The notes under the pieces: model-generated
What the model saw: the letters and a program-made list of their open reading frames with translations, nothing else
What the model was told of the DNA's origin: nothing
Database searches by the model: none
Position numbers and translations under genes: made by a program
Shown here: one piece after another, positions 9,791 through 27,877 of the stretch
Layout of the letters: each line of letters opens with the position of its first letter
Position numbering within the stretch: the first letter of the stretch is position 1
Virus record (IMG/VR): IMGVR_UViG_3300021479_000008
Coordinates: 1 to 55,002 of that record
Strand: one strand, 5' to 3'
Length of the DNA stretch: 55,002 nt
Origin: a virus
Taxonomy: Duplodnaviria; Heunggongvirae; Uroviricota; Caudoviricetes

Positions 9791-10041
9791 TTCTTCAATC
9801 CAGCTTGCAGGTTTGTCAGTGTCTTAACTATACTCTTGTCATCTATGAAAGGTAGGACTTGATTGATCTCACTCGCTACTACATCGGGTTTGGTTGTTTC
9901 TCCGGTTGCTAAGAAACTACTGAGCGGAGTGTTACGTAACTTTTTCAAAGCGTTACTGACGTCACTCCAGCCTTTGGCAGTGGAAATGTCTGATACGAAA
10001 CCTTCACTGTCCACAAGAAAGAAACTCATTTTGTTCCTCAT
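9760..10041 (-). CDS. Hypothetical protein (start possibly MSFF, after a GAGG RBS)
   Basis: Downstream of a TCTGTATAAT element. Confidence 0.6.
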   Translation of the reverse strand: MRNKMSFFLVDSEGFVSDISTAKGWSDVSNALKKLRNTPLSSFLATGETTKPDVVASEINQVLPFIDDKSIVKTLTNLQAGLKKCKDIAIISQ

Positions 10042-10045
10042 TCAT

Positions 10046-10055
10046 ATTATACAGA
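10046..10055 (-). promoter_or_regulatory. Putative promoter element TCTGTATAAT (copy 2)
   Basis: Exact 10-mer in a 24-bp intergenic gap. Confidence 0.6.
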
Positions 10056-10065
10056 TACGCAGTTT

Positions 10066-11679
10066 CTATTTTATATACTTCGTCAGGCCCGCGAAAGTAT
10101 TGACACTTTTCATCATGTGAAGGTTAAATGATCCCAACCCAGCTCGTACCAGTACATCTAATTTCTTTTGACGCATATCAACAACTACCGTGTACGTTCT
10201 CAATTTCTTCTGTCTTGCTTCTTTCATTTTCCTTGCCAATGAAGACTTGTGCATGGTAATTTTCGTATTCTTCATTCCTGGGAATAGGGTTTTTACTTCT
10301 ATACCTACTCCCTTTTTCATCACGTCGAACGGTTCGTGATCGGCTAATTGCGTACCACCTATTGCTTTCGCGACTAGACCTTCACTCAACGTCGATATGT
10401 TATACTTTTCTTTCGTCATGGGAACATACGATGCTTTCGCGCGCTCGATCTTGTTCTCGTCTTTGGGTTTACGCCCGTAAGGATGACGGCCTGAGCCTAG
10501 TCCTCCTCCGTACATGGATACTGGTTTGTGAGACTGAATGGAAACCTGGGGATAGTTATGAACATGATCTTTTATATACTTTTCTATAAACTCTTTCTTG
10601 GAAGGCTCCATCTGATATCCCTTTCCAAGAAGTACAAATGCCCCGCAATCGGCAAAATCTTCGTTTGGATTTCGCTCTGCGTAATGGCGGGTGAACTTTA
10701 TTCCAGCTTTATGTGTCCACTTACTCGTAGCTTTTGGCCATCCTGGTCTTTTCTCAACATAAGGTAAGGATTGCCCTGGTTTCCATCCTATTATCCAACC
10801 CGATAAATCCTGCCATGCTTTTTTCTCCTCTTGTGAAAAGTTTTCGTATATAGAATGAAATACTTCATGTACCACAGTTATTTCTATGTGGTATATCCAA
10901 CCTTCTCCTTTTCCAAGCCTAGTTCTGTTGATGAAATTTTTCGGATTAAAGAATATCGTACTCGTCTCCGGTTCATACTTACCGTGTACTGCATTTAATT
11001 CGTTGGCACTTTTGATCTGCTTTACGTATACCAATAATTCTGGTGGTACACGGGAGATCATCGCTCTAAGACCTTCTTCTTCCGGTCCGGTAAATCCACT
11101 GATCTTGATTCCGTGCCACAACGTTCCGGAATAATCTCCTGCTGGGGAAGATTCTGTGGCTGCTTCTAACTCTTTCTTAGGCTCCCACCAGTCACTACAA
11201 AATTCGTCTGCGGGTAGGGGAAGTTTCTTAGAGCCATCATTCCACTTGATGTAATACTCGTTACTACATTCTTTCTTATCTTCGCTCACATACTTACACG
11301 AAGCACAACTACTTCCTCCTTTTGGAACCTGCATTGCTGCTTTGTGATCATCTGGGTAAGTTGCTTCACCAGCTTTCAAAGACTGCCTCAACGTCTCGGC
11401 TAAATCACCTTGGAAAGAAGTAGCATACCTACGTAAGAAAGATTCTCCGTGACGCTTGTACTGATTCCTCATGTCCTCTATCGCATCGGCATTGGAAATA
11501 CCACGATGCCTGCCGTAACGTTCTACGGCTTCATTGCACTTAGGACATAGATTCTTTTTTGTGTTTACGTTGCAGACTTCACAGTGTCTACCTGATCCCG
11601 GACCACCACTGGTAATATCGTGGACGGTATCGGCTATTGCTTCTACAGCACTGGCGACGATGTCTTCTACGGGAATCAT
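10066..11679 (-). CDS. Multi-domain GGPGSG-motif protein with zincin metallopeptidase domain
   Basis: HEVFH plus downstream NEDFAD; GGPGSGR and GGLGSGR motifs; Cys clusters; C-terminal PD-(D/E)xK-like FDV...IEVK. Confidence 0.7.
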   Translation of the reverse strand: MIPVEDIVASAVEAIADTVHDITSGGPGSGRHCEVCNVNTKKNLCPKCNEAVERYGRHRGISNADAIEDMRNQYKRHGESFLRRYATSFQGDLAETLRQSLKAGEATYPDDHKAAMQVPKGGSSCASCKYVSEDKKECSNEYYIKWNDGSKKLPLPADEFCSDWWEPKKELEAATESSPAGDYSGTLWHGIKISGFTGPEEEGLRAMISRVPPELLVYVKQIKSANELNAVHGKYEPETSTIFFNPKNFINRTRLGKGEGWIYHIEITVVHEVFHSIYENFSQEEKKAWQDLSGWIIGWKPGQSLPYVEKRPGWPKATSKWTHKAGIKFTRHYAERNPNEDFADCGAFVLLGKGYQMEPSKKEFIEKYIKDHVHNYPQVSIQSHKPVSMYGGGLGSGRHPYGRKPKDENKIERAKASYVPMTKEKYNISTLSEGLVAKAIGGTQLADHEPFDVMKKGVGIEVKTLFPGMKNTKITMHKSSLARKMKEARQKKLRTYTVVVDMRQKKLDVLVRAGLGSFNLHMMKSVNTFAGLTKYIK

Positions 11680-11685
11680 TTTTAC

Positions 11686-12072
11686 CTAAGCGAATGTAAC
11701 GTTTCCTTGTTGAACAAAAAAGTGGGCTTCACAACCACTCGTAAGCAATACAGATGATGAACCTGCGACTAGACTTAAATCTTCGTAATTTGTACCCACA
11801 AGATTCCAACGCCCTGGCTTAGGATCAATATCAGGTGGAACTTTGGGAGACCAACACAATACCCAATGTGTTCCAACCGATCCTTTATTCTGTTCAAAAC
11901 ACTTAGGACACATAAACGTTATTCCATCAGCTTCTTGTGGTGTATCTACATATACTTGATATTCACGTGGTCCTGTTACTTCCTCATCAGTACCATCTTC
12001 CTTACGTCTAGTCCATTGCTCTACTCTTTCTTCGCGACGTAGGAACTGCGGTTCTAATGTACTAAGTCTCAT
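11686..12072 (-). CDS. Cys/His metal-binding protein (DUF6527-like)
   Basis: FMCPKC...RWNLVG...DLSL...GCEAHFFVQQG pattern; family recalled from motif only. Confidence 0.45.
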   Translation of the reverse strand: MRLSTLEPQFLRREERVEQWTRRKEDGTDEEVTGPREYQVYVDTPQEADGITFMCPKCFEQNKGSVGTHWVLCWSPKVPPDIDPKPGRWNLVGTNYEDLSLVAGSSSVLLTSGCEAHFFVQQGNVTFA

Positions 12073-14099
12073 ATTGCTGCAGCTCCAAAAGCGCGGAACA
12101 TACCACCGCCATTTATCCTGCGTCTCCTGTTACGCAATGCACTGGCATAATAGGCACTAGGTGTTGCTATGGCTGTAGTACGAACGGGTACCATTGGAGG
12201 AATTCCACCCGGCTTTGAACGTTTCAACAACTTCATTCTTTGTTCCTTGGTGTCTTTACTATTACGTCTTTGTACGTCCATAAATTTGTTGTCCTTTTCC
12301 TGCGGATCGTCTACCGGTACTTTCTGCCCTTTTCCTCTCTTGGCTAACGAAGGAGGAGCGAACCACGTCATTGGATCGATATAACCCCATGACTGGGCTC
12401 CGGCCATTGGTTCTCCTTGATCTCCGAACGCGGCTATCTTCGGTGGCCGTATTAACTTATCCGATCTATCTGGGAACAACTTCAATTGGTTTTTGTTCTT
12501 ATGGGCTAGTGCTCGTTCCTTTTCCGGACTCTTCCACTGGTTAAGACCTTTTGCGGAAGATTTACGTCCTGAACCTGGTCCACCCGCTTTGATAGTTGTC
12601 TCTCCACCTATACCGTACCTTTCACTCAAAAAAGTTTTCAAATCATTGAGCGCAACTTTGAAAGACTGTTCTTTATCTTGTTCTGCGTTATGCTGGGTGT
12701 AGTAACCGATCCTCTCTAGTTTATTTCCCGTAGCTCTTGGAGCGTTTGTTATCTCTGTAACTTTAACATGTCCAACATCAGTAGGATGCTTTACTACATT
12801 TACTTGATGGCCTCTAGCTGTGTAGTACTGATTACTAGTACTTTTGAACCCTTCTTTGAACTTGCCATAACTTGGATGCCTACCACTACCGGGGCCACCT
12901 GCATCCACATACGGTTCTATTCCAGCCCGACGCTCTGATTTCTTAAACTCAGAAGGCGATTGTCTGATTACTTTCCCTGCATACATCCGTGTCATCTTCT
13001 CTACGTACGCACTGGTTGCTTCTTTATGCGCGTCCTCGTGCTTCATACCTGCTTGTTTCGCTAACTGATATATACGCTGGTACTCCTTCATTGCTTGTTT
13101 CTTGCGGCCACTTCCCGGTCCTCCGGCGAATAGATTCTTTGGAAGACTAGGTTCTATGAAGCTTTTTCTGTCGGCTACGGCTTGGCCCATCTCTCTACTG
13201 GGGTAGCAGCCAAAGCTACGGTCTACACCCGAATCACTTACAACACAATACTGAGTTCCCTGTTTTACTATTCTCTTTTTCCCTTTTGGTGGGTTTGGCG
13301 ACGTTTCCAGTTCTACATTCTCTTCTTTCGCTTCTACTAATCCTCCAACGTGTTTCTGCTTTCTGATGAGCTTACGGAAATGTTTACGCTCTCTACCATT
13401 GTGATCGTCTGGTGGTAGTATTTCTCCCGTCTTACGGTCTACTTCCCACTGAACATCTTTATAGGCTTCGTGCGTAATCGTCGCATCTGGATCGTCAGGA
13501 TCGTGGGTTGCCTTTACACTTGTCGGAAACATGCTAGGCTCTCTGTCTGCCAGATTTGTGAGATACATGAAATCGCGAGAAATATTCTCACCGTTACGGA
13601 AACGTATGTTGGCTCGCGTTCCTTTTACTTTCATGACTACGCCACGTCCGTGGAATCCGTGTACGTATACCTGGTCTCCAACTCCGAATGTACTGGAGAA
13701 TAACATCTTGTTACTTTCTTCTTTGATACGCTGCTTGAATTCTTTCAACGGGCAAACCGTAACACTTCCGTAAAAATGATTGGGCAAATCATAGTTTTTG
13801 AAATAGGCTTCCTTGGCGGCTAACACATCTGGGAACCCAAGCATACATTTGTCTTCGTCCCATTGCGTTCCTTGCTTGTCCGTCTGGTGGATAATGTACA
13901 CGAACTTTGCTGATGTATCTGGTCCGAGAAAAACATCTATGGCGTCCCCGTCGGCTCCTGTTGTACCAACTATGTACCCATAATCATGTGAAAGTACCGT
14001 ACTCCACGGTTTTCCAGATTGTTTATCAACTCCAGACCGGGTGCTTCCGGCTGGATTCTCTATACAAATCTTTATTCCACGGAATACGGTGTATTTCAC
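12069..14099 (-). CDS. Polyvalent-type protein: N-terminal InPase (inorganic pyrophosphatase-like) domain plus three GGPGSGR-delimited modules
   Basis: IENPAGSTRSG...DYGYIVGTTGADGDAIDVFLGP...WDEDKCMLGF; GTG start with GGAGG RBS. Confidence 0.75.
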   Translation of the reverse strand: MKYTVFRGIKICIENPAGSTRSGVDKQSGKPWSTVLSHDYGYIVGTTGADGDAIDVFLGPDTSAKFVYIIHQTDKQGTQWDEDKCMLGFPDVLAAKEAYFKNYDLPNHFYGSVTVCPLKEFKQRIKEESNKMLFSSTFGVGDQVYVHGFHGRGVVMKVKGTRANIRFRNGENISRDFMYLTNLADREPSMFPTSVKATHDPDDPDATITHEAYKDVQWEVDRKTGEILPPDDHNGRERKHFRKLIRKQKHVGGLVEAKEENVELETSPNPPKGKKRIVKQGTQYCVVSDSGVDRSFGCYPSREMGQAVADRKSFIEPSLPKNLFAGGPGSGRKKQAMKEYQRIYQLAKQAGMKHEDAHKEATSAYVEKMTRMYAGKVIRQSPSEFKKSERRAGIEPYVDAGGPGSGRHPSYGKFKEGFKSTSNQYYTARGHQVNVVKHPTDVGHVKVTEITNAPRATGNKLERIGYYTQHNAEQDKEQSFKVALNDLKTFLSERYGIGGETTIKAGGPGSGRKSSAKGLNQWKSPEKERALAHKNKNQLKLFPDRSDKLIRPPKIAAFGDQGEPMAGAQSWGYIDPMTWFAPPSLAKRGKGQKVPVDDPQEKDNKFMDVQRRNSKDTKEQRMKLLKRSKPGGIPPMVPVRTTAIATPSAYYASALRNRRRRINGGGMFRAFGAAAI

Positions 14100-14258
14100 A
14101 TCACCCTCCGATCAAAATTCTCGTGTTTAAGACACGTATAGGAGATAGGGCGTGCCTGCGTTTACGTGGTTTGAGACGGGTTATTTTCGTAGCAGAGGGG
14201 TTTGGATAGGGAAAGGGAAAGGACGTGTGTAAACGCGTTTTGCACATAAGTAACAACT

Positions 14259-14462
14259 TTACGAACCACTTGGAATCTGCGGCGGTGTAAAAGACGTATT
14301 GTTGAACAAATACGTTACTTTCGGGCTCTCACGAAATGTACCACCAGCGTTTTCAAGACTTTTCTGGTTGGTAAGTCCTTGCGAGGCCAACTTTACTAAC
14401 AAGCCAGCAGTTTCTAGCGCATCTTCACGAGCGCGCAATAGTGGAGCAACGTGTAACGGCAT
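14259..14462 (-). CDS. Hypothetical protein (67 aa, MPLHVAP...)
   Basis: AAGGAGG RBS before the ATG at 14462. Confidence 0.5.
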   Translation of the reverse strand: MPLHVAPLLRAREDALETAGLLVKLASQGLTNQKSLENAGGTFRESPKVTYLFNNTSFTPPQIPSGS

Positions 14463-14463
14463 T

Positions 14464-14814
14464 TTAATACCCTCCTTGGAGTGATAGTTCTTTGTAACTG
14501 TAATCCTTTTCTTTACCTTTGTGCTTCTGGTGCAAAGATTCTGCACACTCAACGGTCCCAAAGATCACGTGTACTCTATTTGTCCCAAGTTTCTGATGAA
14601 TTTCTGCAATCTGTTCCCACGAAGGATACTCAATACGGAACTCTGTACGTGGCAACTGGATAAGAAGGTCTATGTCGGACCAGTCAGTCTGCTTCCCCGA
14701 TGCATACGAACCTATCAACAGAATCTTTTCTACTTTCTTCGGGAATAGGACTATGTTACAAATGTCTCTTACCAGTCCTGCTTTCTCCAGAATCTGTGAT
14801 TTGGTAAATATCAT
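14464..14814 (-). CDS. Minimal nucleotidyltransferase (Pol-beta superfamily)
   Basis: LLIGSYASG...SDIDLLI (GS...DxD). Confidence 0.8.
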   Translation of the reverse strand: MIFTKSQILEKAGLVRDICNIVLFPKKVEKILLIGSYASGKQTDWSDIDLLIQLPRTEFRIEYPSWEQIAEIHQKLGTNRVHVIFGTVECAESLHQKHKGKEKDYSYKELSLQGGY

Positions 14815-15326
14815 TAGTCACCATACGTACTAGTAAATCGTTGTATTCCTTTAATCCCATTGGCAACTTGTGGTTTAGCAGTTCTACTCCCATTCCAACA
14901 CTGTACCTTTCCAACTTTACCATTTACAAAATTAACCTGTATCCAAGTTCCGTCACCTTCATATTCTGTGTTTCGAGAATACATCCGACGGGTTACTGAA
15001 TTATTATCTTTCCCAAAAGAACGCATTTCCATCATATGATCAACAGTTTCAATACTATCCGAACCCGCATTCATATCGGGATTATGTTCGACCAGTCTTT
15101 GTCTCGCTTTCTGCCGTACTGCCGGTGTAGTGCTTGGATCTGGACGCGAAATGATCTTCGAGTAAGGTCTAGCTAGCATTGCTGTCTCGGCTTCACTCGG
15201 CGTATCGTGCTCACTGATTACATCCTGATATTTCGTATCGACAACTTTATACTTACGTCCTATCTTGGAACTGCCCCCTCCTTGACTTCCTTCACAGTAT
15301 AACGTTATGGAATCTTGAAGGTTCAT
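14814..15326 (-). CDS. Hypothetical protein with MNLQ N-terminus
   Basis: MNLQDSITL resembles the N-termini of 25206-26429 and 26954-27859. Confidence 0.6.
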   Translation of the reverse strand: MNLQDSITLYCEGSQGGGSSKIGRKYKVVDTKYQDVISEHDTPSEAETAMLARPYSKIISRPDPSTTPAVRQKARQRLVEHNPDMNAGSDSIETVDHMMEMRSFGKDNNSVTRRMYSRNTEYEGDGTWIQVNFVNGKVGKVQCWNGSRTAKPQVANGIKGIQRFTSTYGD

Positions 15327-16294
15327 GCCGTCACCATACGCTGTGCTTCTTTTATGTCAGCTAAAACCATCAACTTTACCAAATCCAAAAAGTTTGTTTC
15401 TGGAACCCATCCCAACTTAACGGCCGCTTTGGTAGCATCAGCTAAAATTGTATATGTTTCACTATGTCGCAACGAATCACTAGAGAATGGGACTAGATCT
15501 ATTGTACGTACATCGGCAGCTTGCATTGCAGCTTTCAGAAATTCTTGTACCGTATGACCAATCCCCGTACCTATCACAAAATCTTCCGGTATATCCTGTT
15601 GTAGCATCTTATACATCGCTTTGACGTAATCGCTGGCATAGCCCCAATCACGTACTGTTGTAATTGTACCAAGCTTTAACGCAGGTTTCTCTCCGATCGC
15701 ATACTGTGCAACTGCACGTGTAATTTTTCTCGTGACCATGTCTTCTGTTCTTCGAGGACTTTCGTGATTGAAAAGAATACCACCAACCACGTAATAGCCT
15801 TTGTCTCTGTACATCTCAACTATTCTGTGTGCTGCATACTTGGATATACTGTACGGAGTAATAGGATTAAACGAAGTATTTTCATTTACTACAACCTGTC
15901 CTTTCCCATCAAACTTACCGTACATAGTTGCAGAAGATGCCTGGTAAACACGAGTATTCTTGAACTGCAACTTTTCGACGCAACGCATAAGCCGCATGAA
16001 ACCGTTCGTGTTAACATCAAACGTATCAACGGGATATTCTATACTGGCTGGAACAGTTGACTGTCCCGCAAAATTGTAAATCTCATCTGGTTCAACTCTT
16101 CTGAGTAACGTCAATAATGATAATTCGTCTCGTATATCGGCATAAGCATATCTAACCCCGGAAATAAAATTCCCGCCAGATGATAGTGTACTTCCTCTGG
16201 CCGTTCCCCATACCTCATAACCAAGTCCGAGTAACAACTCTGCCATATAACTTCCATCTTGTCCAAGAGCGCCAGTGATTAAAGCTTTTTTCAT
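15323..16294 (-). CDS. gmd: GDP-mannose 4,6-dehydratase
   Basis: ALITGALGQDGSYMAELLL, YQASSATMYG, YSISK, LFNHESPRR, RDWGYASDY. Confidence 0.9.
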   Translation of the reverse strand: MKKALITGALGQDGSYMAELLLGLGYEVWGTARGSTLSSGGNFISGVRYAYADIRDELSLLTLLRRVEPDEIYNFAGQSTVPASIEYPVDTFDVNTNGFMRLMRCVEKLQFKNTRVYQASSATMYGKFDGKGQVVVNENTSFNPITPYSISKYAAHRIVEMYRDKGYYVVGGILFNHESPRRTEDMVTRKITRAVAQYAIGEKPALKLGTITTVRDWGYASDYVKAMYKMLQQDIPEDFVIGTGIGHTVQEFLKAAMQAADVRTIDLVPFSSDSLRHSETYTILADATKAAVKLGWVPETNFLDLVKLMVLADIKEAQRMVTA

Positions 16295-17568
16295 TTTGCC
16301 CCTATCGTCATCGTAGCGATTCGCTGTTCTGTCTCAACTATCATGGGACGTGGAAGTGGGAAGATAAACCTGCCCCCACCTTCCAACCATTTCTCTTCTC
16401 GTTTACGAATACTCTCACGGAAGTGCCACGGAAGTACGAGTGCTGTTTTTGCCTTACTACGAAACTCTTCTTCAGTAATAATTGGCCACCATGTTCCAAC
16501 CATTCGTAACCCAATCTTATGCTCATCTCGATCGGCTACACCAAGGACCATTTCCGATCCGCCGTTCCGAAACATAAACTGGGTTAAGACTGTACCGCGA
16601 GTAGAAGCTCCGTACGCATACAAAGGAGCATATTTCTCCAACGTCATTTTCAACACAGTAGCCAGATTCTTTGCCCGTTCTGAAAACAAATAGTAGGCTG
16701 CATTCGTATCAAGACCCATCTTCATTTCCAACAACTGGGTTGTGTACATTGTATCACCCAACGACTTCGTTTCCTCTGTCATTTTGTTTACAAATGGCGG
16801 ATGGGAAATATATACCCGTAACGATCCACCGTTTGACTGACTCAGTTCCACACCTTTTATTTCTAGACCTGCACGCTTCACCGCTTCTTGTAACGATAAC
16901 AACGAGTAGTAGGCAATATGTTCGTGACAAATAAAATCCAACGCACAGTCTTTCAGCATCGTACCGAGATAGTTTAACTGGATGATAAGAATGCCTTCAT
17001 CATCTAACAGGTCTCGGCAATCTTCCAGAAACTTTACCGGATCACTCACATCGTAGAACATTGCGACTGCCGTAATGATCTTGAACTTGGGAACGACTCC
17101 CATTACCGTGACTGCTTCTTTGGAAAAGAACTCCGGTATACCTACATCTATCTTATCGTTCGCCATGCCTTCGGCAATAAGTTCTCCGCACGGATCGACT
17201 CCGAATGTCATGACTCTTTTATCGTACCAACCTAATAGGGTACCGTCATTCGCGCCAATATCCAATACTCTATCTCCCGGTTCCATCTGAACTGCTGCCT
17301 GGGCATGTTGCACAACTGCAAGCAATTCGTCTCTCATCTGTTCGTTGATACCACTACGATACCAGAACTTACGGTACAACCTTTCTGGGCTGACTTTATT
17401 CTTCAACTGAACAAGATGGCAACTTGGACACTTCATAAGTATAAGCGGAGCTTTCAATAATTTCTCGTCTTTCTCTTTTACGAAATCAACAACGTATTGC
17501 TCCCCCATGTCTAACAACGGTGTTACGGGTGTCTTGCAGATCAAACATTCTTTCATTTCTTCGATCAT
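16291..17568 (-). CDS. NDP-hexose C-methyltransferase-like SAM-dependent methyltransferase
   Basis: N-terminal CLIC...CPSC, VLDIGANDG, ICHEHIAYYS, YGASTRG, LPWHF. Confidence 0.8.
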   Translation of the reverse strand: MIEEMKECLICKTPVTPLLDMGEQYVVDFVKEKDEKLLKAPLILMKCPSCHLVQLKNKVSPERLYRKFWYRSGINEQMRDELLAVVQHAQAAVQMEPGDRVLDIGANDGTLLGWYDKRVMTFGVDPCGELIAEGMANDKIDVGIPEFFSKEAVTVMGVVPKFKIITAVAMFYDVSDPVKFLEDCRDLLDDEGILIIQLNYLGTMLKDCALDFICHEHIAYYSLLSLQEAVKRAGLEIKGVELSQSNGGSLRVYISHPPFVNKMTEETKSLGDTMYTTQLLEMKMGLDTNAAYYLFSERAKNLATVLKMTLEKYAPLYAYGASTRGTVLTQFMFRNGGSEMVLGVADRDEHKIGLRMVGTWWPIITEEEFRSKAKTALVLPWHFRESIRKREEKWLEGGGRFIFPLPRPMIVETEQRIATMTIGAK

Positions 17569-18698
17569 ACCAACACTCCCTTATATTCCAGACTACACAC
17601 TCGATTATAAGCCCCAACCCATTTTCTCATGCAATACGCCGTTCGATGTATAAATGACTTGGCATCTACAGTCCAAATCTTTCCTGTAAATTTCTCTACT
17701 TGATCTTCCATTCTTTCTGCCAACGAAAGATAACAATCTGAATACGTCGTACCATCCAACTTTTCTTCATGCAACCATTCTGTCAAATCTTCGAGCATCT
17801 GGATACAAGCATATTCTTTTACTAGGTCTTCCATGTAGTCGTGATTGTTACGAATGTGATTTACAATGGGAGTACCTATTCTGATCTTCTGTCCCATCTT
17901 CTTAACGCATGCTTGCAAAAAATATCCGGTAAAAATATCAGCGTGATGGTCTATTCGCATTCCGTTGATTACATTTCCCATCGGGATGAAGTAGTTGGCG
18001 ACCATTGCTTCTCGACTAACGGCTGTGTTCTGGGAATTTATGGGAGACCACGTCTTGTCCCCAAGAAAGAACGATCTACTATTATATACCGGTTCTGGCT
18101 TTGACGTAAAACTCATCCACGTTAAAGCGTCTAGGTCTGGATCTTCCATCCACAACCCCTCATTAACAGCTACAATTCCGTTTACATCACTCTTTAATAT
18201 GACTGGCCCTTTTTCATTTCTTTGTTTATAAGGAAATCCTCTGGGATAAGCCTTCAAACGCAAATGATTGCAAATGTTACACCACGACGATTGTACTTCC
18301 GACTGTGTGTCTCTTTGTCCAACTAAACTGTGTAAATTAAAAAATCCAGAATCTTCGCGACAGTAATTATCATCATCTATACTGATGATGACTTCACACC
18401 CATCTTGAAGTGCTTTGAGATACCCAACGTTCCGACGATTATCCGAATTTACTGGGATAAGATCAAAGCCGAATTGTTCACGTAAAAACATCCGCTGCAC
18501 GTTTATAGGTTCATGCCAAACATCCCATCCAGCGGATGAAAACCTATAACACTGTTCGTACAACTCATGCGGCGTTTTTAGATCTGGAACAATGTAAAAC
18601 GTAACATCTTCTTGTACACCTTCGGCTTCCGCTTGCTTACAGTATCCTTCCAGAAACTTTCCATCGCCAATCGTCGTGCATACTAATCCAATTTTCAT
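17565..18698 (-). CDS. RGP/GT75-like (UDP-sugar mutase-like) protein
   Basis: SDNRRNVGYL, IISIDDDN, RGFPY, GLWMEDPDLDA, NSQNTA. Confidence 0.65.
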   Translation of the reverse strand: MKIGLVCTTIGDGKFLEGYCKQAEAEGVQEDVTFYIVPDLKTPHELYEQCYRFSSAGWDVWHEPINVQRMFLREQFGFDLIPVNSDNRRNVGYLKALQDGCEVIISIDDDNYCREDSGFFNLHSLVGQRDTQSEVQSSWCNICNHLRLKAYPRGFPYKQRNEKGPVILKSDVNGIVAVNEGLWMEDPDLDALTWMSFTSKPEPVYNSRSFFLGDKTWSPINSQNTAVSREAMVANYFIPMGNVINGMRIDHHADIFTGYFLQACVKKMGQKIRIGTPIVNHIRNNHDYMEDLVKEYACIQMLEDLTEWLHEEKLDGTTYSDCYLSLAERMEDQVEKFTGKIWTVDAKSFIHRTAYCMRKWVGAYNRVCSLEYKGVLV

Positions 18699-18704
18699 AT
18701 TCTC

Positions 18705-21122: not shown

Positions 21123-21491
21123 TTATTTTCTCCACGGCTCATGGACCAATTCATCGTCTCGATCTAATCCACTACTTTGCCTAAATGCTTGATTCGATTT
21201 GAATCCTATAGGCTTACCTTTTGGGTCCGTTTCTATCACATACGCCATTTTCTGCATTTGGTATAAACTGAGAGTATTACGTAACGTATATGATGAACAC
21301 TCTACTACCGTTCTAAACGGAACAATAATTGGTTTATACGAAACAGCATCACACGTAACATGCTGTTCACTTGTAGCTTCCCCACGAATTGTTCTGGCAA
21401 AGATGCACGAATCACACAACGATTTTCCATGCAACGGCGTGCCATCCCTTACACCTCTCCATCTTTGGCTCATACTTATTCTCCTATCCAA
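21123..21491 (-). CDS. Hypothetical Cys-rich protein
   Basis: CDSC...C...C; abuts the downstream start. Confidence 0.6.
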   Translation of the reverse strand: MDRRISMSQRWRGVRDGTPLHGKSLCDSCIFARTIRGEATSEQHVTCDAVSYKPIIVPFRTVVECSSYTLRNTLSLYQMQKMAYVIETDPKGKPIGFKSNQAFRQSSGLDRDDELVHEPWRK

Positions 21492-22210
21492 TTCAACGCG
21501 ACTTCGTGATTACTGTTTCCGTGTGTTCCTACTGCACCGATATGCTGCCAATAACTATTCTCCGTTGTCCAACGTTCTCCCGGTCTGGCATAAGCGTGAT
21601 GAAGGTCTACTGTATTACCTCCACCCAAATGTTCTGGTACTGCAAATCCTCCATGACCTAGTCTCCAATTCGGAGCGTACTCTTCCCATTCGCGTCTGGA
21701 GACGGTTCCTATACCGGCTATGGACGTTACTTGAATATCTGTTCCTCCCGGGCCTGGTAAATACATCCAACCTTGTGTTTTAACTGTACGATGATGACGC
21801 GTGTAAGAGCTTCGGTATACTGACCATGCTTTTGCATTAGGGCGACGTTCTATCAGCATTATCAATGCCGTTAACCAATCTGGGTTATACAAGACATCAT
21901 CGGTCAACAAACAAACGTGAGTGACTTCCGGGTGATGACGAAACATCTGATCTGTCGTCCATATCACAACTGGATCTAATCCGTTTATCCATTCCGGTTG
22001 TTCCGCCGTTAACGTTCTGGAAAAGGGGAACTTGAATATCCAAGACTTGTAGTCGAATGTAATATTCGAAACTTTGTACGTAAAGTACATCCCAAACACT
22101 TTGTCTTTCAAATCTAGCTTTGTTTTTACCAACGAAGCAAAAGAACGTTCGGCATACTCCTTTCTCTGCTCGTTGTAAATATACGACACCAAATTTAGCC
22201 CAAGGTTCAC
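21476..22210 (-). CDS. GT-A (GT2-like) glycosyltransferase
   Basis: THVCLLTDDVLYNPDWL, WQHIG; likely GTG start at 22210 with AAGGAG RBS. Confidence 0.6.
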   Translation of the reverse strand: MNLGLNLVSYIYNEQRKEYAERSFASLVKTKLDLKDKVFGMYFTYKVSNITFDYKSWIFKFPFSRTLTAEQPEWINGLDPVVIWTTDQMFRHHPEVTHVCLLTDDVLYNPDWLTALIMLIERRPNAKAWSVYRSSYTRHHRTVKTQGWMYLPGPGGTDIQVTSIAGIGTVSRREWEEYAPNWRLGHGGFAVPEHLGGGNTVDLHHAYARPGERWTTENSYWQHIGAVGTHGNSNHEVALNWIGE

Positions 22211-22722
22211 GCTATCTCCTTGACTGCATACATCTTTTCTTGGTGGTCTATATTCCACAACAAGTCGATCTGGTGAATTATCTCTGAGCGCTTGTCGTTC
22301 AGATCGTTGATACTGAACAAAACTTCGGCGGCTCGTTTCGAGGCTTGTACGGCAAACCTGTCTGGAGCGTCTCTCAGGATTCTGGCTTCGTCTTCCAATT
22401 CCCAGATCTTTCCGTTTATGTCTGAAAGCTGATCGTACAACGAATCGTATTTACTAACTATCTGGTCACTCGTTGCAATATCTGGAATATAGTACTTGAT
22501 AAGATAGTCTTGGACTAGCTCGTACTCATCCATAAAGGCCAGGGCATTTCTGTGTTTTGTCTTGTCTCCTTCTAACACTTGACGGGTTACGGCTTTCAAC
22601 ATTGCTTTAGGACGCATCTCTGGTTGTCGTTCCATGACTCCCGTATCGCAATGAACCAGTTTCAGTTCCAAAATCGTCTGTCGATCTACAAGTTCACCAG
22701 GCTTTGGACGAATTATTGACAT
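22207..22722 (-). CDS. DUF6165-like coiled-coil protein
   Basis: PGELVDRQTILELK...INGKIWELEDEAR...LNDKRSEIIHQI; family recalled from motif. Confidence 0.55.
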   Translation of the reverse strand: MSIIRPKPGELVDRQTILELKLVHCDTGVMERQPEMRPKAMLKAVTRQVLEGDKTKHRNALAFMDEYELVQDYLIKYYIPDIATSDQIVSKYDSLYDQLSDINGKIWELEDEARILRDAPDRFAVQASKRAAEVLFSINDLNDKRSEIIHQIDLLWNIDHQEKMYAVKEIA

Positions 22723-23591
22723 ACACTCTCCTTTTCCAACTTTCTATTCAATCCATGCTGTCCAAAGAATAATGCACACTGCTTGGCTGCTTCTTCTGGA
22801 GGCGTACCATATACTGGTGATGCTTCCGGCCAATGTGTATTACTAAATGTGCTTCCAAACTGTCCTTGATGATGTCTTGCGGGGTGTGGCTCGTATAAAA
22901 ATATATTTGCTTGTCCTACACCACTCGCTAGTACGTACTGACTTGATCTACATCCGACGAATGCTTTGGCAGACTTTATTACAAATGTAGCCATTCTCCA
23001 ACTTAACTTATTCGTTTCTATAAATTGCTCATCTGGGAGCAATGAACGTAACGTGTTCAGGAAAGCTCCTTTCTGATCTGCATACAGCTCGTTAAAAGAA
23101 TAAGCTATGAAATCTTCCGGCTTGTTTTTCCACCTACCAGCTTTAGTTAGTATCAAATCCCAATACTGATTGTCTGCTTCATTAGCGTGAGCGGGAAATA
23201 TTGCTGCACCAGTACTGATAAAAGGACAAACAGGCTCGGGTAGAACGATTCCTTGCTGCGATGCTATGAAATCGACTAACGGTTGATTTGGTGCTGGATG
23301 ATGCCTGTACGTAAGGTGATAAACATTCTCGTACTGATATCTCAATGCTTCGTCGTTCTGCGGGATGGCTGGCTGATCACCATATGGACTGCCTTCACAT
23401 GCCCACGGCTCATTTACGAAAGCAGTGTCTATATACTCCTGTTGCTGGAGTAATGGAAGCAGGCTACGGTAACTGGGCATGATGCCCATATCTACTTTTT
23501 CATTATGCTTACGACTCAGTTCTCGTACTGTCGGAAGGCTCCACAAAATGTCCCCAAATTTTCCACTGAACGTACAGAGCGTCTTACTCAT
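22713..23591 (-). CDS. GT9/heptosyltransferase-like glycosyltransferase
   Basis: GKFGDILWSLPTVREL; AKAFVGCRSSQYVLASGVG. Confidence 0.7.
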   Translation of the reverse strand: MSKTLCTFSGKFGDILWSLPTVRELSRKHNEKVDMGIMPSYRSLLPLLQQQEYIDTAFVNEPWACEGSPYGDQPAIPQNDEALRYQYENVYHLTYRHHPAPNQPLVDFIASQQGIVLPEPVCPFISTGAAIFPAHANEADNQYWDLILTKAGRWKNKPEDFIAYSFNELYADQKGAFLNTLRSLLPDEQFIETNKLSWRMATFVIKSAKAFVGCRSSQYVLASGVGQANIFLYEPHPARHHQGQFGSTFSNTHWPEASPVYGTPPEEAAKQCALFFGQHGLNRKLEKESVCQ

Positions 23592-24922
23592 TATGCTCTC
23601 CTATTAGCCTTCATACACTTTTCTCCGTCGGCGTGCAAAGCACCGCACTTGGTACATACTTTAATCGTTTTTCCTTTACCACGTACAACTGGGTTATAGG
23701 CTATTTGGTTTTCAGTATCGTCTACCTTATCGGACAACGCGGCAGGCCCAGCTTTCATCTTTTTCTTAGCGAACATCTTCTGTCCGCGTACTGGACTAGG
23801 ACTAATTGGCATCGGGTGTGTTGAACGCATACTGCTTCCATTCGGTGTAGTTATACGTCCCATGTTCCCTGGCATCATTGCATCCATGCTGTCGTGCTGT
23901 GCTTTCTTTTCTTTACTACTAATATGGCCTTTGTTTCTCGTTGACCAGTTTTTCTTTGCTCCTACTGACGTTCCGGCTGCGGCTACGTACTGGATTTTTA
24001 CCTTTTCTGGATCGCCTACCAAACTTACTTCGTTGTCTTCCAGTTCGTATTCCTGTTTGAATGTTTTTCCATCGCAGCTATATACAAAATACTTCTTGTA
24101 TGGAAATACATCGGTGATATACGGATACGGTCCCGATACAGCTTTGGGGGAAGAGCTATCACCGCCCTTGTGATACTTTTTCTGGATACATTCTTGTAAC
24201 TGACTACGTAGATCGTTTTCTCCCATATCTGCGGCGGCGTTCAACTTGGCGATTCCGAACTGTGTGTCGATCGTACTTGAACCGTGGATCACGGGTATAC
24301 TGGAAGATGATCCATGGACTGTGACGTTGATCGGTCTGCCTGTTCCGGCTTTCGATTTCTGTGAATTACCTTTACCCTTACCACCTTGTCCCAAAGCTTT
24401 GGCGGGGGGTTTGATACTCTGTCCCGGATTGCCGGCTCGCGTAGAAGCATTTCCCTGTCCCGGCTTTGGTACACCCATCTTCGGAGGAACAACCTGCGCA
24501 CTCGGTCCTGGTGCTACACCAGGCTGGTGCCCGACTAGACTTGGACGTGATTGGTTCATCGTTTGTCCCGGCTGCTGCTGAGTGTTAATAGGATTGCCGT
24601 TCTCGTCGTATCCCTGTGCCTCATCTGGATTCTGTCCGTTCTGATCCAACATTGGTTGCTGATTAGGCTGGAGATTGTGTAACGTGCTCAGATGACTGAT
24701 GACACTCTGCACGGGCGCCAAGTTACGCTGGGTCTCTTCTCGGGCCATGTCGTACTCAAGCTTTTTCTGTTGCAGCTTACCGAACTGATCTTTGGTGGCT
24801 CCAACAGGGTCCTGGACATGACGGGAGACGTGGTTTGTCAACGGCGATGCTTTCGTTGCAGCTAACAACGCAGGTATATTTTCAATCGCCTTGCCGTCAA
24901 TTATATCGCGTAGGGTTGTCAT
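23591..24922 (-). CDS. Putative head morphogenesis/scaffold-like protein, P/Q/G-rich
   Basis: Coiled coil, disordered region, YITDVFP...YFVYS.DGKTFKQEY...VGDPEKVKIQYV domain of a type I associate with phage head proteins. Confidence 0.45.
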   Translation of the reverse strand: MTTLRDIIDGKAIENIPALLAATKASPLTNHVSRHVQDPVGATKDQFGKLQQKKLEYDMAREETQRNLAPVQSVISHLSTLHNLQPNQQPMLDQNGQNPDEAQGYDENGNPINTQQQPGQTMNQSRPSLVGHQPGVAPGPSAQVVPPKMGVPKPGQGNASTRAGNPGQSIKPPAKALGQGGKGKGNSQKSKAGTGRPINVTVHGSSSSIPVIHGSSTIDTQFGIAKLNAAADMGENDLRSQLQECIQKKYHKGGDSSSPKAVSGPYPYITDVFPYKKYFVYSCDGKTFKQEYELEDNEVSLVGDPEKVKIQYVAAAGTSVGAKKNWSTRNKGHISSKEKKAQHDSMDAMMPGNMGRITTPNGSSMRSTHPMPISPSPVRGQKMFAKKKMKAGPAALSDKVDDTENQIAYNPVVRGKGKTIKVCTKCGALHADGEKCMKANRRA

Positions 24923-25139
24923 GTTGTTTTTCCTTTTCGAGCAACATCGTCGGAACGTTTAACGATTTCGCATACTTGATTGTCTTCGCATTTATACCAA
25001 GGTCTTTGCACAACCTATCGATTGTATTTCTGTGTACTTCCAGTTCCCGTGCTGCGGCTGACAAGTTTCCTTCGCACTCAAGAATCTTTTCTAATACTAC
25101 TTGTCGCTTCAACTCGAATATTGTCTCTTTGAGGCCCAT
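24897..25139 (-). CDS. Fis-type helix-turn-helix protein
   Basis: LECEGNLSAAARELEVHRNTIDRL. Confidence 0.8.
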   Translation of the reverse strand: MGLKETIFELKRQVVLEKILECEGNLSAAARELEVHRNTIDRLCKDLGINAKTIKYAKSLNVPTMLLEKEKQHDNPTRYN

Positions 25140-25205
25140 TACTTCTTACCTCGCTTTGACTTGTTGTGTTGACTCCATGCTATTTGGAATGGGATAGAGC
25201 TATCT

Positions 25206-26429
25206 TCACCATACTTTTCTTTTAACTTCAAAACTTTGTTCCTCTCGTCCCGGAGGCGCCGTAAACTTCATACGCTTCTTGGTACGCATCTTCTTGATTA
25301 GCTTACTACCTTTTAGCACATCATACTGTTTTCCAACACCATGGCAATCTGGACATTGCTTGGGAAGACTGTTTTCATCTTTAGCAGGTATGCGTCCTTT
25401 ACCCTTACAAGTAACGCACCTTCTACCACTGCCGGGACCACCTGCCTTAACGACGCGGGAGAAATCAGAATTCGTAGCGCCTTTATTCAATACTCTCGGT
25501 CCTACTCCCGTTCCCGGTCCCATCAATGGTGCTTGTCCGAATCGATCGGTATAACCCGGCTTCGTTCCTGGTGCGAATACTTGACTCTTACGTGCGTTCC
25601 ATTTCAGTTTTTTCTGGTGGTGGATTGGCAGACTATCGGATGAACTTTCTTCCAACGAACCACTTGATCTCGCCATCTTTCCCGATTCCTGTTTGCTGGA
25701 GAATACGCCACTGTCGGATAGTACCGGTCCTTGATTTTCTCGAATCTGTGCCGTTCTCAGTTTCTTTACTTTCTTCTTCGAGTGCATCGTATCGTGCGGC
25801 CGACTACCCGCTTCTCCGGTGTCTTGCAGTCCGACTGGTTCTGGTCTGCTCATGCCCACTGCCGCACGCAACTGGCAGGCTGTACTCAATGGACTACCAA
25901 TGGCTTTTATTATCCCATTTCCATTACCGTTCTTTTTTGGTGGGCCGATCAAAGCCATTCGCTTCAAGGCTTTCGTTCCAACCCATGCCATGATCCTGAC
26001 TTCGCCACGCTGTCTCGCGGCTGTCGTTCTGTGTTTGCCGTCTAGTACGACTATTTCTGGAATGTATCCCAAGGCGGTCATTCCACGTTTTCGCTTGTTC
26101 AGGTCTATGACTATCGGTTCGTCGGCCATCGTTCCGGCGTTGATGAAATGTTTTACGCGGTCCGGGTGTGCTGGATTACTACAACATGCGGCGGCATTTA
26201 TGTCTACTTCCATGAGCACAAACTTCTTCGAGCTCAACCAACGGTCTGCCCACTGTTCTCCCGTCAGGTATTCTCCCGATCCCGCGGCTATGGTAAGCCT
26301 CTGCTTAATCATGTGGGCCATATCCGATACACGTCTTCCGACTTGGTGCTTCGTACGCGTTTTCGGTATCACTGGTAACGGTTGTGGCAGGTACAATGGC
26401 TGCATGGAGACGGCTTCTTGTAGATTCAT
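25206..26429 (-). CDS. ParB/Srx-like domain protein with GGPGSGR motif and DnaJ-like Zn finger
   Basis: VVLDGKHRTTAA; VKAGGPGSGRRCVTCKGKG...CPDCHGVG; MNLQ N-terminus. Confidence 0.65.
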   Translation of the reverse strand: MNLQEAVSMQPLYLPQPLPVIPKTRTKHQVGRRVSDMAHMIKQRLTIAAGSGEYLTGEQWADRWLSSKKFVLMEVDINAAACCSNPAHPDRVKHFINAGTMADEPIVIDLNKRKRGMTALGYIPEIVVLDGKHRTTAARQRGEVRIMAWVGTKALKRMALIGPPKKNGNGNGIIKAIGSPLSTACQLRAAVGMSRPEPVGLQDTGEAGSRPHDTMHSKKKVKKLRTAQIRENQGPVLSDSGVFSSKQESGKMARSSGSLEESSSDSLPIHHQKKLKWNARKSQVFAPGTKPGYTDRFGQAPLMGPGTGVGPRVLNKGATNSDFSRVVKAGGPGSGRRCVTCKGKGRIPAKDENSLPKQCPDCHGVGKQYDVLKGSKLIKKMRTKKRMKFTAPPGREEQSFEVKRKVW

Positions 26430-26713
26430 CGCTTACTCCCTTTACTGGGATAATGTTCAACTGGGCATGGAACGTTTACACCAGTGTTTCCATTCTCGTA
26501 ATTATTACAATGTGGCTGCTTGTACACGACTGCACCTATACTGATTCCAACTCCGGCTAGTTCCCATACTATATTCTTTTTCAGGAAATGTACTACACGA
26601 TTAGGTTTATGCTGTGGTTCCTGCAATACCCGCCACTCGTCACGTTTGTATGTCTGGGCAGAACATATCCCGACTAGGAGGATAATTGCAATGATCGTTC
26701 GCATGATATTCAT
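26426..26713 (-). CDS. Small exported/membrane protein
   Basis: Signal peptide MRTIIAIILLVGICSA (start possibly 26704); second hydrophobic segment. Confidence 0.6.
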   Translation of the reverse strand: MNIMRTIIAIILLVGICSAQTYKRDEWRVLQEPQHKPNRVVHFLKKNIVWELAGVGISIGAVVYKQPHCNNYENGNTGVNVPCPVEHYPSKGSKR

Positions 26714-26721
26714 TATACAGA
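26712..26721 (-). promoter_or_regulatory. Putative promoter element TCTGTATAAT (copy 3)
   Basis: Exact 10-mer at a gene junction, 7 nt before the ATG at 26704. Confidence 0.6.
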
Positions 26722-26952
26722 ACCTCTCGTTCTAAACATTTTCTGTGACGTGAACTTGGGAGCCATGTCGATATGAATGAACGTACCCAGACTAATACGT
26801 TCACGCTGACCGTTATCTAACCGGATGAACACGACTGGACCGTGACTGTCTCTACGGATGGAAAGAAACTCAAAATTATGTGGCAACGCAAGTTCACAAA
26901 TCGCTATGAACTCGTCTACGTTTAGCTTTTCGCAGACTTCGAGCCCAGTCAT
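26713..26952 (-). CDS. Hypothetical protein
   Basis: Tightly packed ORF. Confidence 0.55.
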   Translation of the reverse strand: MTGLEVCEKLNVDEFIAICELALPHNFEFLSIRRDSHGPVVFIRLDNGQRERISLGTFIHIDMAPKFTSQKMFRTRGSV

Positions 26953-26953
26953 A

Positions 26954-27859
26954 CTAGTTGCTCCTCACGAGATTCTTTAACGATGTTTTGATTCCGTACC
27001 GCTGTTTCAACATCCCGACTGACTTGGCTATCTGGGTTTTATCTTTACTTGTGTTTCTGTACTCGAACGTTCCCTGACTGACTCGTTGTGCGCTGGTAGT
27101 GTAGTTCCTCTCCGTTACGTTGACACCTTTTATTTTCCCGTTGCTGAGATATGCATCTACCTGTACTGATGCTCCCGGTCCTTGGTGCAAATGGGCTGGC
27201 ATACTGGAAGTGTCGTAAATACGACTGACTCTTTTCTCGCCTTGGTACTCACCCGGTGCTGGTACTGTCTTGGTGACTTTGGAGATTAGAGCGAAGTCAC
27301 CTTTCAACCTATGTGGCTCCGACGAAAGATTCTTGATGTTCTCAGTTTCGTCCTTTGGCTTGACCCAAGTGAGTCTGGCTCCATCCGATGTCTTGGTCTG
27401 CATTATGACTTGACTCTTCGGAACTGACTTTATTGATATGGCGTTTGGATCAGGGGGAACTATATGTCCCGACTTATCTGTGACTGGAATAAAATTGCCT
27501 GATCTACTTACCTTACTCGGAGTACTAAACACAGGAGGAGTTCTACTATCGTGACTTTCTTGTAACTCCAGATCAGACATTTTCGCATACGGAACCATAC
27601 CGCCCAAACCTTTTACTGGGTGTAGTGGTTCTACGGCTACCATCTGATCACTGTGTCCTATCTTCGGCATTACGTTACTGACCTTTAATTCGGTACCATG
27701 CGGAAACTCAAACTTACCTCCACTCTTCGGATGGTAAGAAGACGTACCCGGTTTCATCGTGACCGTATCACCTTCTTTGATAGGACGACCGCAGTTCGGA
27801 CCATGACATCCACTGCCCGGTCCGCCTGCCAGTAACGTTATGGCTGTTTGTAGGTTCAT
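26954..27859 (-). CDS. MNLQ/GGPGSG-motif protein, putative internal head protein
   Basis: MNLQTAITLLAGGPGSGCHGPNCGRP; no SD, 6 nt after TATAAT. Confidence 0.65.
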   Translation of the reverse strand: MNLQTAITLLAGGPGSGCHGPNCGRPIKEGDTVTMKPGTSSYHPKSGGKFEFPHGTELKVSNVMPKIGHSDQMVAVEPLHPVKGLGGMVPYAKMSDLELQESHDSRTPPVFSTPSKVSRSGNFIPVTDKSGHIVPPDPNAISIKSVPKSQVIMQTKTSDGARLTWVKPKDETENIKNLSSEPHRLKGDFALISKVTKTVPAPGEYQGEKRVSRIYDTSSMPAHLHQGPGASVQVDAYLSNGKIKGVNVTERNYTTSAQRVSQGTFEYRNTSKDKTQIAKSVGMLKQRYGIKTSLKNLVRSN

Positions 27860-27865
27860 ATGCTT

Positions 27866-27875
27866 ATTATACAGA
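27866..27875 (-). promoter_or_regulatory. Putative promoter element TCTGTATAAT (copy 4)
   Basis: Exact 10-mer in an 18-bp intergenic gap. Confidence 0.6.
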
Positions 27876-27877
27876 TT

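Follow-up and report, generated by a model that had tools for sequence, protein, structure and literature searches.

The window analysed here, positions 1–55,002 of a single 119,002-bp tailed-phage contig (IMG/VR record IMGVR_UViG_3300021479_000008; 44% G+C, nearly all genes on the minus strand), comes from a phage in which unrelated modules of seven proteins are joined or headed by one short peptide, a hydrophobic-x-Ala triplet followed by GGPGSGR. On balance, this arrangement is best read, with modest confidence, as a composite signal: a site for the phage's own maturation protease, then a shared tag that would form the new N-terminus of cargo carried in the head. The pattern of conserved residues, the behaviour of the junction in relatives and the properties of the head proteins of the same phage bear on this reading and on three alternatives to it.

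Occurrence of the junction peptide

A six-frame scan of the window recovers GGPGSGR five times, GGPGSGC once and GGLGSGR once, all on the minus strand and all in frame within four long open reading frames (ORFs) of 537, 676, 407 and 301 residues. An earlier note, made from the window sequence by itself, had listed six copies of GGPGSG and one of GGLGSGR, and the scan reproduces their coordinates exactly. The triplets that it reported before five of them (LFA, VDA, IKA, VKA and LLA) are as described, and the remaining two window copies follow ITS and MYG. Extension of the scan to the whole contig, which the same note had proposed, adds two copies beyond the window, one in a 102-residue ORF (contig 92974–93282) that reads SLQA and then GGPGSGR, the other in a 109-residue ORF (contig 97509–97838) in which the tag is preceded by TLHC. 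From the composition of the 39,285-residue ORF set, chance alone would supply 0.003 copies of GGPGSG and 0.00016 of GGPGSGR.

With P1 as the last residue before the first Gly and P1′ as that Gly, P3 is Leu, Ile, Val or Met in all nine contig sites (chance ~9e-6), and P1 is Ala in six of nine (chance ~8e-6) and Ser, Gly or Cys otherwise. Codon choice differs between copies at nearly every motif position, Ser being encoded by TCA or AGT and Arg by CGN or AGR, and selection therefore acts on the peptide and not on the DNA. The earlier claim of peptide-level selection is thus borne out by synonymous variation across the nine copies. The modules that follow the motif were also said to be unrelated and, once stripped of the motif itself, they have no significant mutual similarity by blastp (all E > 0.04). 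Four of the nine copies lie only 11–24 residues from a start codon. Near-identical 11-residue leaders, MNLQTAITLLA and MDLRTTITLHC, stand before two copies, and two more proteins have leaders of 23–24 residues.

Behaviour of the junction in relatives

The same junction can be followed through 43 homologues of the 676-residue protein, which carry 83 GG.GSG sites. P3 is Leu, Ile, Val, Met or Phe at every one of the 83, and P1 is Ala in 73, the rest having Gly, Ser or Cys, while P2 and P4–P8 are free. The prime side reads GG[P>V]GSG[R>C] from P1′ to P7′, followed by His, Lys or Arg at P8′ and by Pro, Lys or Gly at P9′. Fixed residues at P3 and P1, combined with freedom at P2 and P4–P8, correspond, as far as an alignment can tell, to the subsite preferences of a protease.

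The junction is also the exact place where modules appear, disappear, become fused or come apart. Among the homologues, middle modules are gained or lost precisely at the motif, a basic C-terminal module designated A is last in 31 of 44 family proteins, and the InPase module is first in 19. InPase is a separate gene of 213–241 residues in three syntenic relatives and is fused in this phage. One relative has, as a 67-residue gene of its own, the leader, tag and zinc ribbon with which the 537-residue ORF begins. The sequence MKASIDA|GGPGSGR begins one protein and sits inside another with its start Met retained. Module ends keep the hydrophobic-x-Ala triplet also when no GGPGSG opens the following module. 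The earlier proposal that the motif is a module junction is therefore upheld by the relatives. It needs amendment in that the peptide consists of two separable parts, each of which occurs without the other.

Such seams might instead be scars of in-frame gene fusions, the internal copies persisting as harmless flexible linkers. Leader-like sequence does occur inside proteins, as in the DMKASIDA|GG of P0012, which includes a former start Met, and in the KMNTAISLYA of InPase-module proteins. Most internal sites, however, show no trace of a leader and have still retained P3, P1 and the complete seven-residue tag despite synonymous change (83 sites), a constancy that points to continuing selection on the internal copies. 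Fusion scars are accordingly a very improbable explanation, the last in weight of the three alternatives, behind an uncut docking tag and, second, cleavage by another protease.

Protease, scaffold and capsid of the phage

A prohead protease, which the earlier note had postulated, is encoded on the contig, fused to scaffold. The protein of 546 residues (contig 95866–97506) consists of an N-terminal protease domain and an acidic, coiled-coil-like scaffold part, and its gene lies between those for the portal (Pfam Phage_portal, PF04860) and the major capsid protein in the order portal, protease-scaffold, capsid. An AlphaFold (AF2) model of the protease domain (predicted local distance difference test, pLDDT, 85.6) adopts an assemblin/gp21 fold; the top 50 Foldseek matches in the PDB are all herpesvirus assemblins or T4 gp21, with probabilities of 0.82–1.0 and template-modelling (TM) scores of 0.33–0.52. 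A language-model search also leads to this clan, with the DUF2213, YonD_N, S77, S78 and S80 families. S63, S150, H104 and E152 are invariant and H73 is present in 119 of 120 homologues; the Ser and His residues among them are candidates for catalysis.

Assemblins cut at (V/L/I)-x-A|S and gp21 at (L/I)-x-E|, so that a hydrophobic P3 and a fixed P1 are typical of the fold. Sites of this kind, which the earlier note had expected in capsid and scaffold, are found in both. The leader of the major capsid protein varies in length (8–37 residues) and sequence among 119 homologues and ends in [I/V/M/L/F]-x-A before a conserved AADF; the hydrophobic residue is present in 119 of 119 and the Ala in 118 of 119, giving a conserved [IVLM]-x-A|AADF. 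In the scaffold, seven alignment columns read hydrophobic-x-Ala in at least 70% of 120 homologues, and none of the seven falls within the protease domain. Control patterns matched in content yield 1–4 such columns in the protease-scaffold protein, most of them in the protease domain. The junction consensus thus recurs at capsid and scaffold sites at the level of pattern, as it does for the processed internal proteins of T4-type systems. The specificity of the phage protease would, judged from these sites, resemble that of assemblin.

A different protease could be responsible for the same cuts, either the HExxH (zincin-like) module of the 537-residue protein or a host enzyme. A metallopeptidase domain inside polyvalent proteins has been proposed to process them (Iyer et al. 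2017, PMC5512222), and one carrier here, the 537-residue protein, has a module with the motif HEVFH. In P0300, the homologue of this module weakly matches the lethal-factor-type family ATLF (E = 0.0018, below the cut-off). The module itself has no Pfam match at E ≤ 5, leaving the peptidase assignment below Pfam thresholds, and most tagged relatives, together with all tagged proteins of the unrelated contig G005 described below, have no recognisable metallopeptidase in the same chain. Moreover, the P3/P1 rule at the junctions equals that of the assemblin fold and is common to the capsid and scaffold sites. Cleavage by another protease is, on this evidence, decidedly unlikely.

Under the composite-signal proposal, [L/I/V/M/F]-x-[Ala, rarely Gly/Ser/Cys] would be the recognition site of the scaffold-fused, assemblin/gp21-fold serine protease (contig 95866–97506), which would cut after the small P1 residue. 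GG[P]GSG[R/C], followed by His, Lys or Arg and by Pro or Lys, would then be a flexible tag with which each module begins once it has been released; the prime-side pocket of the protease, the scaffold and the capsid interior are candidate readers of it. The carriers would be polyvalent cargo resembling the T4 internal proteins, either strings of modules or single modules behind an 11–24-residue leader, with pyrophosphatase, HExxH peptidase-like, PD-(D/E)xK nuclease, ParB-like and zinc-ribbon modules as putative contents. Such cargo would enter the prohead, be divided into individual proteins at maturation and be delivered along with the DNA. This account is in line with the earlier note's own inference of polyproteins processed by a prohead protease, which the comparisons support in part. 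We infer the cleavage, the protease responsible, packaging, ejection and the function of the tag alike. Three points are added by this genome: junctions that match sites in the scaffold and at the capsid leader, a protease of assemblin fold, and a P1 that switches between Ala and Lys among lineages.

Modules of the carrier proteins

The carriers in the window are all encoded on the minus strand. The 676-residue polyvalent protein (12069–14099) consists of InPase, SH3-like and further N-terminal sequence (aa 1–325), a 75-residue helical module, a 105-residue module and the 171-residue basic C-terminal module A, and every boundary between them is hydrophobic-x-Ala followed by GGPGSGR. The first tag (13104–13124, aa 326–332) is preceded by L-F-A at 13125–13133, the second (12879–12899, aa 401–407) stands between V-D-A and HPSYGK, and the third (12564–12584, aa 506–512) follows I-K-A and heads module A. 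InPase is identified by Pfam (PF18823, 5.8e-40, aa 4–125), and PHROG entries matched through the InPase part of the chain include minor head, virion structural and DarB-like proteins. Among 471 cultured-phage records, InPase matches include modules annotated within portal, minor head or virion structural proteins. In one cultured phage, Tenacibaculum phage Larrie (L254:1734–3455), InPase occupies the N-terminus of a 573-residue protein that carries a ClpP annotation and is encoded immediately before a structural protein; it could represent a fusion of pyrophosphatase and head protease. Module A (12069–12581, aa 507–676) is basic and of low complexity, contains the element KxSxAKGLNxWxSxEKE... 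and ends in a Gly/Ala-rich hydrophobic tail. Its role may be to fix the chain to DNA or inside the capsid. The 102-residue ORF beyond the window holds only the first conserved element of this module.

In the 537-residue protein (10066–11679), a 24-residue leader and tag are followed by a CxxC...CxxC zinc ribbon, a Cys-rich module (about aa 100–170), the HExxH module (about aa 184–390), a second tag and a PD-(D/E)xK nuclease (aa 405–537). The leader ends in I-T-S directly before the first GGPGSGR (11587–11607, aa 25–31). The variant GGLGSGR (10486–10506, aa 392–398) lies between M-Y-G and HPYGRKPK at the head of the nuclease module. The three modules of the 537-residue protein occur separately among 1026 database matches from a scan of 1.8 billion representatives. 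At the boundary of the Cys-rich and HExxH modules there is L-E-A without a tag (11161–11169, aa 171–173), a junction that the earlier note had marked as LEA-ATES. Stand-alone homologues of the Cys-rich module end there, at query aa 166–179, and matches to the HExxH module start at 168. In the homologue P0292, the Cys-rich module ends in DLEA followed by GGPGSGR at the very place where the 537-residue protein has L-E-A.

The AF2 model of the nuclease module (aa 372–537, pLDDT 89) finds Hjc resolvases, SPARDA nuclease domains and restriction enzymes as its top Foldseek matches, and its D, E and K show no variation across the alignment. The GGLGSGR stretch is modelled as coil (pLDDT 53–58) beside a domain with pLDDT above 92, which predicts a flexible or unstructured tag region. 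Measured by at least two effector-type domains in one chain, both large carriers are polyvalent, the 676-residue protein through InPase and its further modules and the 537-residue protein through modules that are each found alone. A 128-residue ORF without a tag (11686–12072), which has a CxxC motif and a weak DUF6527 match, lies between these two carriers and overlaps the stop of the 676-residue ORF by 4 nt.

The 407-residue protein (25206–26429) has an N-terminal part with a DGKHR (ParB-like) motif and a low-complexity middle, then V-K-A and GGPGSGR (25422–25442, aa 330–336) before a CxxC...CxxC zinc ribbon. Its only family matches are weak ones to DnaJ_CXXCXGXG and Anti-TRAP, and the ParB-like motif aligns weakly with a relative that bears ParB_N. 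Of the module names used in the earlier note, InPase therefore stands on PF18823, and "peptidase" and "ParB-like" are carried by the motifs HEVFH and DGKHR with weak sub-threshold matches only. The N-terminus of the 407-residue ORF (26385–26429) reads MNLQEAVSMQP, resembling the 11-residue leader MNLQTAITLLA with no tag after it. That leader itself opens the 301-residue protein (26954–27859; no known family), where it is encoded at 27827–27859 and runs into GGPGSGC-HGPNCGRP, the tag GGPGSGC occupying 27806–27826 (aa 12–18). In other records, MNLQTAITLLA with GGPGSGC..NCGR also heads stand-alone nuclease proteins of about 160 residues. Variants of a promoter-like cassette, (A/T)ATCTGTATAATA, are found at 27865–27877 and 10045–10057, 4–6 nt upstream of the starts of the 301-residue carrier and of the ORF ending at 10041; this spacing is very close for a normal leader RNA.

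The tag in other lineages

Unrelated IMG/VR contigs share the GGPGSG tag. When IMG/VR was scanned with the back-translated motif, most of the matches listed from high-GC contigs were out-of-frame noise, and about 20 of those listed from low- and mid-GC contigs are real. Contig G005 (58% G+C) carries 20 sites in nine genes, all of the form hydrophobic-x-K|GGPGSG[R/P]; 18 of the 20 are in eight genes of the series that follows immediately after a Mu-type portal and a Peptidase_S78_2 protein. With the seven hydrophobic-x-K|GGPGSG sites of contig G003, a Lys at P1 and a hydrophobic P3 are found in 27 of 27 sites. P1 therefore varies by lineage, Lys in these contigs and Ala here, and the tag remains constant. 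Further proteins read x-x-K|GG.GSGN[F/Y/W]GH.GRPG, and one protein carries both forms of the tag. Among the domains of tagged proteins in other lineages are MuF and ART-PolyVal. The Mu-type portal gene of G005 (L247:17271–20003) has a LAGLIDADG-type insertion, probably an intein, and the protein adjoining the portal has a Ser/Asp-rich, scaffold-like part before its S78_2 protease domain.

These distributions allow a broader proposal, that GG.GSG[R/N/C]... is part of a general "cargo code" of tailed phages in which each lineage has its own maturation-protease site, and behind it stands a tag that unrelated lineages share and that some conserved feature of HK97-fold proheads recognises. This generalisation is tentative and falls somewhat short of an even chance. 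No Pfam family covers the tag. The 676-residue protein, used as a query for related loci in IMG/VR, found no relative. Neither blastn of the locus nor tblastn of the capsid, protease and nuclease module gave a match among GenBank phages, and the MuF-tagged protein has one match there, from an uncultured phage.

The same nuclease module is also fronted by other peptides, xGTSEGAxKAWDTRGRG and WRTVRGRKVFI, in P0354, P0400, P0425, P0338, P0378 and P0379. A G-R-(K/P/G) element ends all of the peptide forms found before this module and may be their common functional core.

Genomic setting and weighing of the proposal

The four carriers in the window adjoin sugar-modification genes, and only the 102- and 109-residue carriers lie within the head module. 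The 109-residue tagged gene is located directly between portal and protease-scaffold. In three relatives, portal and protease-scaffold are immediate neighbours that either adjoin or share 4 nt. The head modules of these relatives have no tagged gene, and the 109-residue gene therefore seems to be a cargo gene, peculiar to this genome, that was recently inserted into the head operon.

Several observations weigh against a cleaved, head-packaged cargo. Five of seven carriers are neighbours of sugar-modification genes and remote from the head module, and in three relatives there is no tagged gene within 10 kb on either side of the head module. The hydrophobic-x-Ala triplets of capsid and scaffold are conserved homologous positions, for which structural conservation is a possible cause. 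Some GG.GSGN lineages have (E/Q)-x-K in place of a hydrophobic P3. No tag is found near the InPase gene of Tenacibaculum phage Larrie, Bacteroides phage BF1-TP2, Cellulophaga phage phiST or Bacillus phage Dartukuta, and the tag is likewise absent from SPbeta, type phage of the YonD_N protease family, whose portal, protease and capsid genes follow the same order. The analysis thus turned up no cultured carrier, and the phage itself is uncultured and without a GenBank relative. Finally, seven prime-side residues are strictly conserved, far above the needs of known assemblin-fold proteases, so that the tag may serve some purpose other than cleavage.

This last point also speaks for the foremost alternative, in which the peptide serves purely for addressing or docking, with scaffold, capsid interior, portal or DNA as its partner, and the multi-module chains remain uncut. 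Such a tag would account for prime-side conservation of GGPGSGR beyond what proteases of the fold are known to require and for its presence in lineages whose upstream residues differ. It would also fit the tag's ability to follow a start Met directly, with no upstream site, as GGPGSGR does in one other contig behind a good ribosome-binding site and in a second, AT-rich contig where none is evident. The replacement of the tag by GTSEGAxKAWDTRGRG or WRTVRGRK in the same place before the nuclease module, and its predicted flexibility, point the same way. Docking alone leaves unexplained why P3 and P1 are fixed around a free P2, why hydrophobic-x-Ala persists at seams that have no tag, why the same rule appears at the capsid leader and in the scaffold, and why fused and split versions of the genes are interchangeable. 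An uncut tag is for these reasons unlikely, though it deserves more weight than the other two alternatives.

If the composite-signal reading is correct, one short peptide marks head-carried, injected proteins together with the exact start of each mature effector. Thousands of uncharacterised phage proteins, among them anti-defence enzymes, nucleases and ADP-ribosyltransferases, would be opened to targeted tests. Polyvalent proteins would be taken apart by the head protease, instead of or besides an internal metallopeptidase, and the peptide would provide a natural loading-and-release tag for placing foreign proteins in phage capsids. Should the wider cargo code also hold, effectors carried in the capsid and injected into the host, and their mature ends, would become recognisable from sequence alone.

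Relation to known systems

Several familiar motifs resemble parts of the junction and can be set aside. GGPGSG recalls the P-loop Walker A (GxxxxGK[ST]; GGPGSGKGT in adenylate kinase), for which the junction has Arg or Cys in place of Lys and then His, Lys or Arg; its copies, moreover, lie 50–100 residues apart or 12 from the N-terminus, in a stretch predicted to be coil. A double-glycine leader of the C39 type is rejected on the register of the pattern, no search for a C39 peptidase having been made, the conserved hydrophobic residue being at −5 from GG| and not at −4/−7, with a variable −4 (K, D, E, Q or T). Signal peptidase I needs a small residue at −3, the adenain-type (M/I/L)-x-G-G| site mismatches in register, and a DNA recombination hot-spot is incompatible with codons that are not conserved. 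Literature searches with GGPGSGR, GPGSGRH, GSGNFGH, HAGRPG and similar strings found no match in the papers searched, and GGPGSG alone led to split-GFP linkers and adenylate kinase; the tag thus appears to be undescribed.

Among the closest known systems are the phage polyvalent proteins, whose phage-type members are defined by the InPase domain (PMC5512222). Both sets are chains of InPase, metallopeptidase-like, ParB-like, nuclease and zinc-ribbon modules that shuffle rapidly, and processing is predicted for both. The internal metallopeptidase proposed for polyvalent proteins differs from the defined seam peptide found here, which matches a prohead protease rule. The terms searched matched no junction motif in that paper, and neither a junction motif nor a linker in the MuF toxin paper. 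The Dar proteins of P1 (DarA, DdrB and DarB) and the gp175-type systems of phiKZ and SPN3US are also comparable: anti-defence proteins or enzymes carried in the head are trimmed there by a head protease, as is proposed here, and ParB-like and other polyvalent domains are shared with DdrB and DarB. These systems use other cleavage motifs and have no described prime-side tag, and the likeness of the cargo was assessed at the level of generic domains.

The proteases invite comparison with herpesvirus assemblin and HK97. Assemblin sites, (V/L/I)-x-A|S, share the hydrophobic P3, the Ala at P1 and a small P1′ with the junctions, and the two systems have in common the fold, the fusion of protease to scaffold and a scaffold cut (here putatively) at several sites. 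Assemblin is, however, an enzyme of eukaryotic viruses with substrates limited to the protease-scaffold, without cargo proteins or a GGPGSG tag. HK97 gp5 reads F-N-K103 and then S104, K103|S104 being its known maturation cut, made by gp4. The hydrophobic-x-K|GGPGSG sites of G003 and G005 follow the same hydrophobic-x-Lys rule, and in G005 an S78-type protease adjoins the tagged genes. HK97 differs in having no tagged cargo, the only known substrates being the capsid delta domain and the protease itself.

The internal proteins of T4 (IPI–III and Alt), which bear the capsid-targeting sequence and are processed by the prohead protease gp21, provide a close parallel for leader-borne cargo. The phage described here has no sequence similarity to the T4 leader, uses Ala and not Glu at P1, has a conserved prime-side tag of 7–9 residues without T4 counterpart and carries sites inside multi-module proteins as well, the parallel here being one of pattern. 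In both systems an N-terminal leader of about 10 residues is attached to unrelated cargo and ends in a hydrophobic P3 and a fixed P1; here such a short leader is common to unrelated proteins, ends in the protease consensus and recurs in its 11-residue form in many relatives. The site at the end of the leader is found in capsid and scaffold as well, and the protease of this phage is predicted by structural modelling to have the same fold as gp21.

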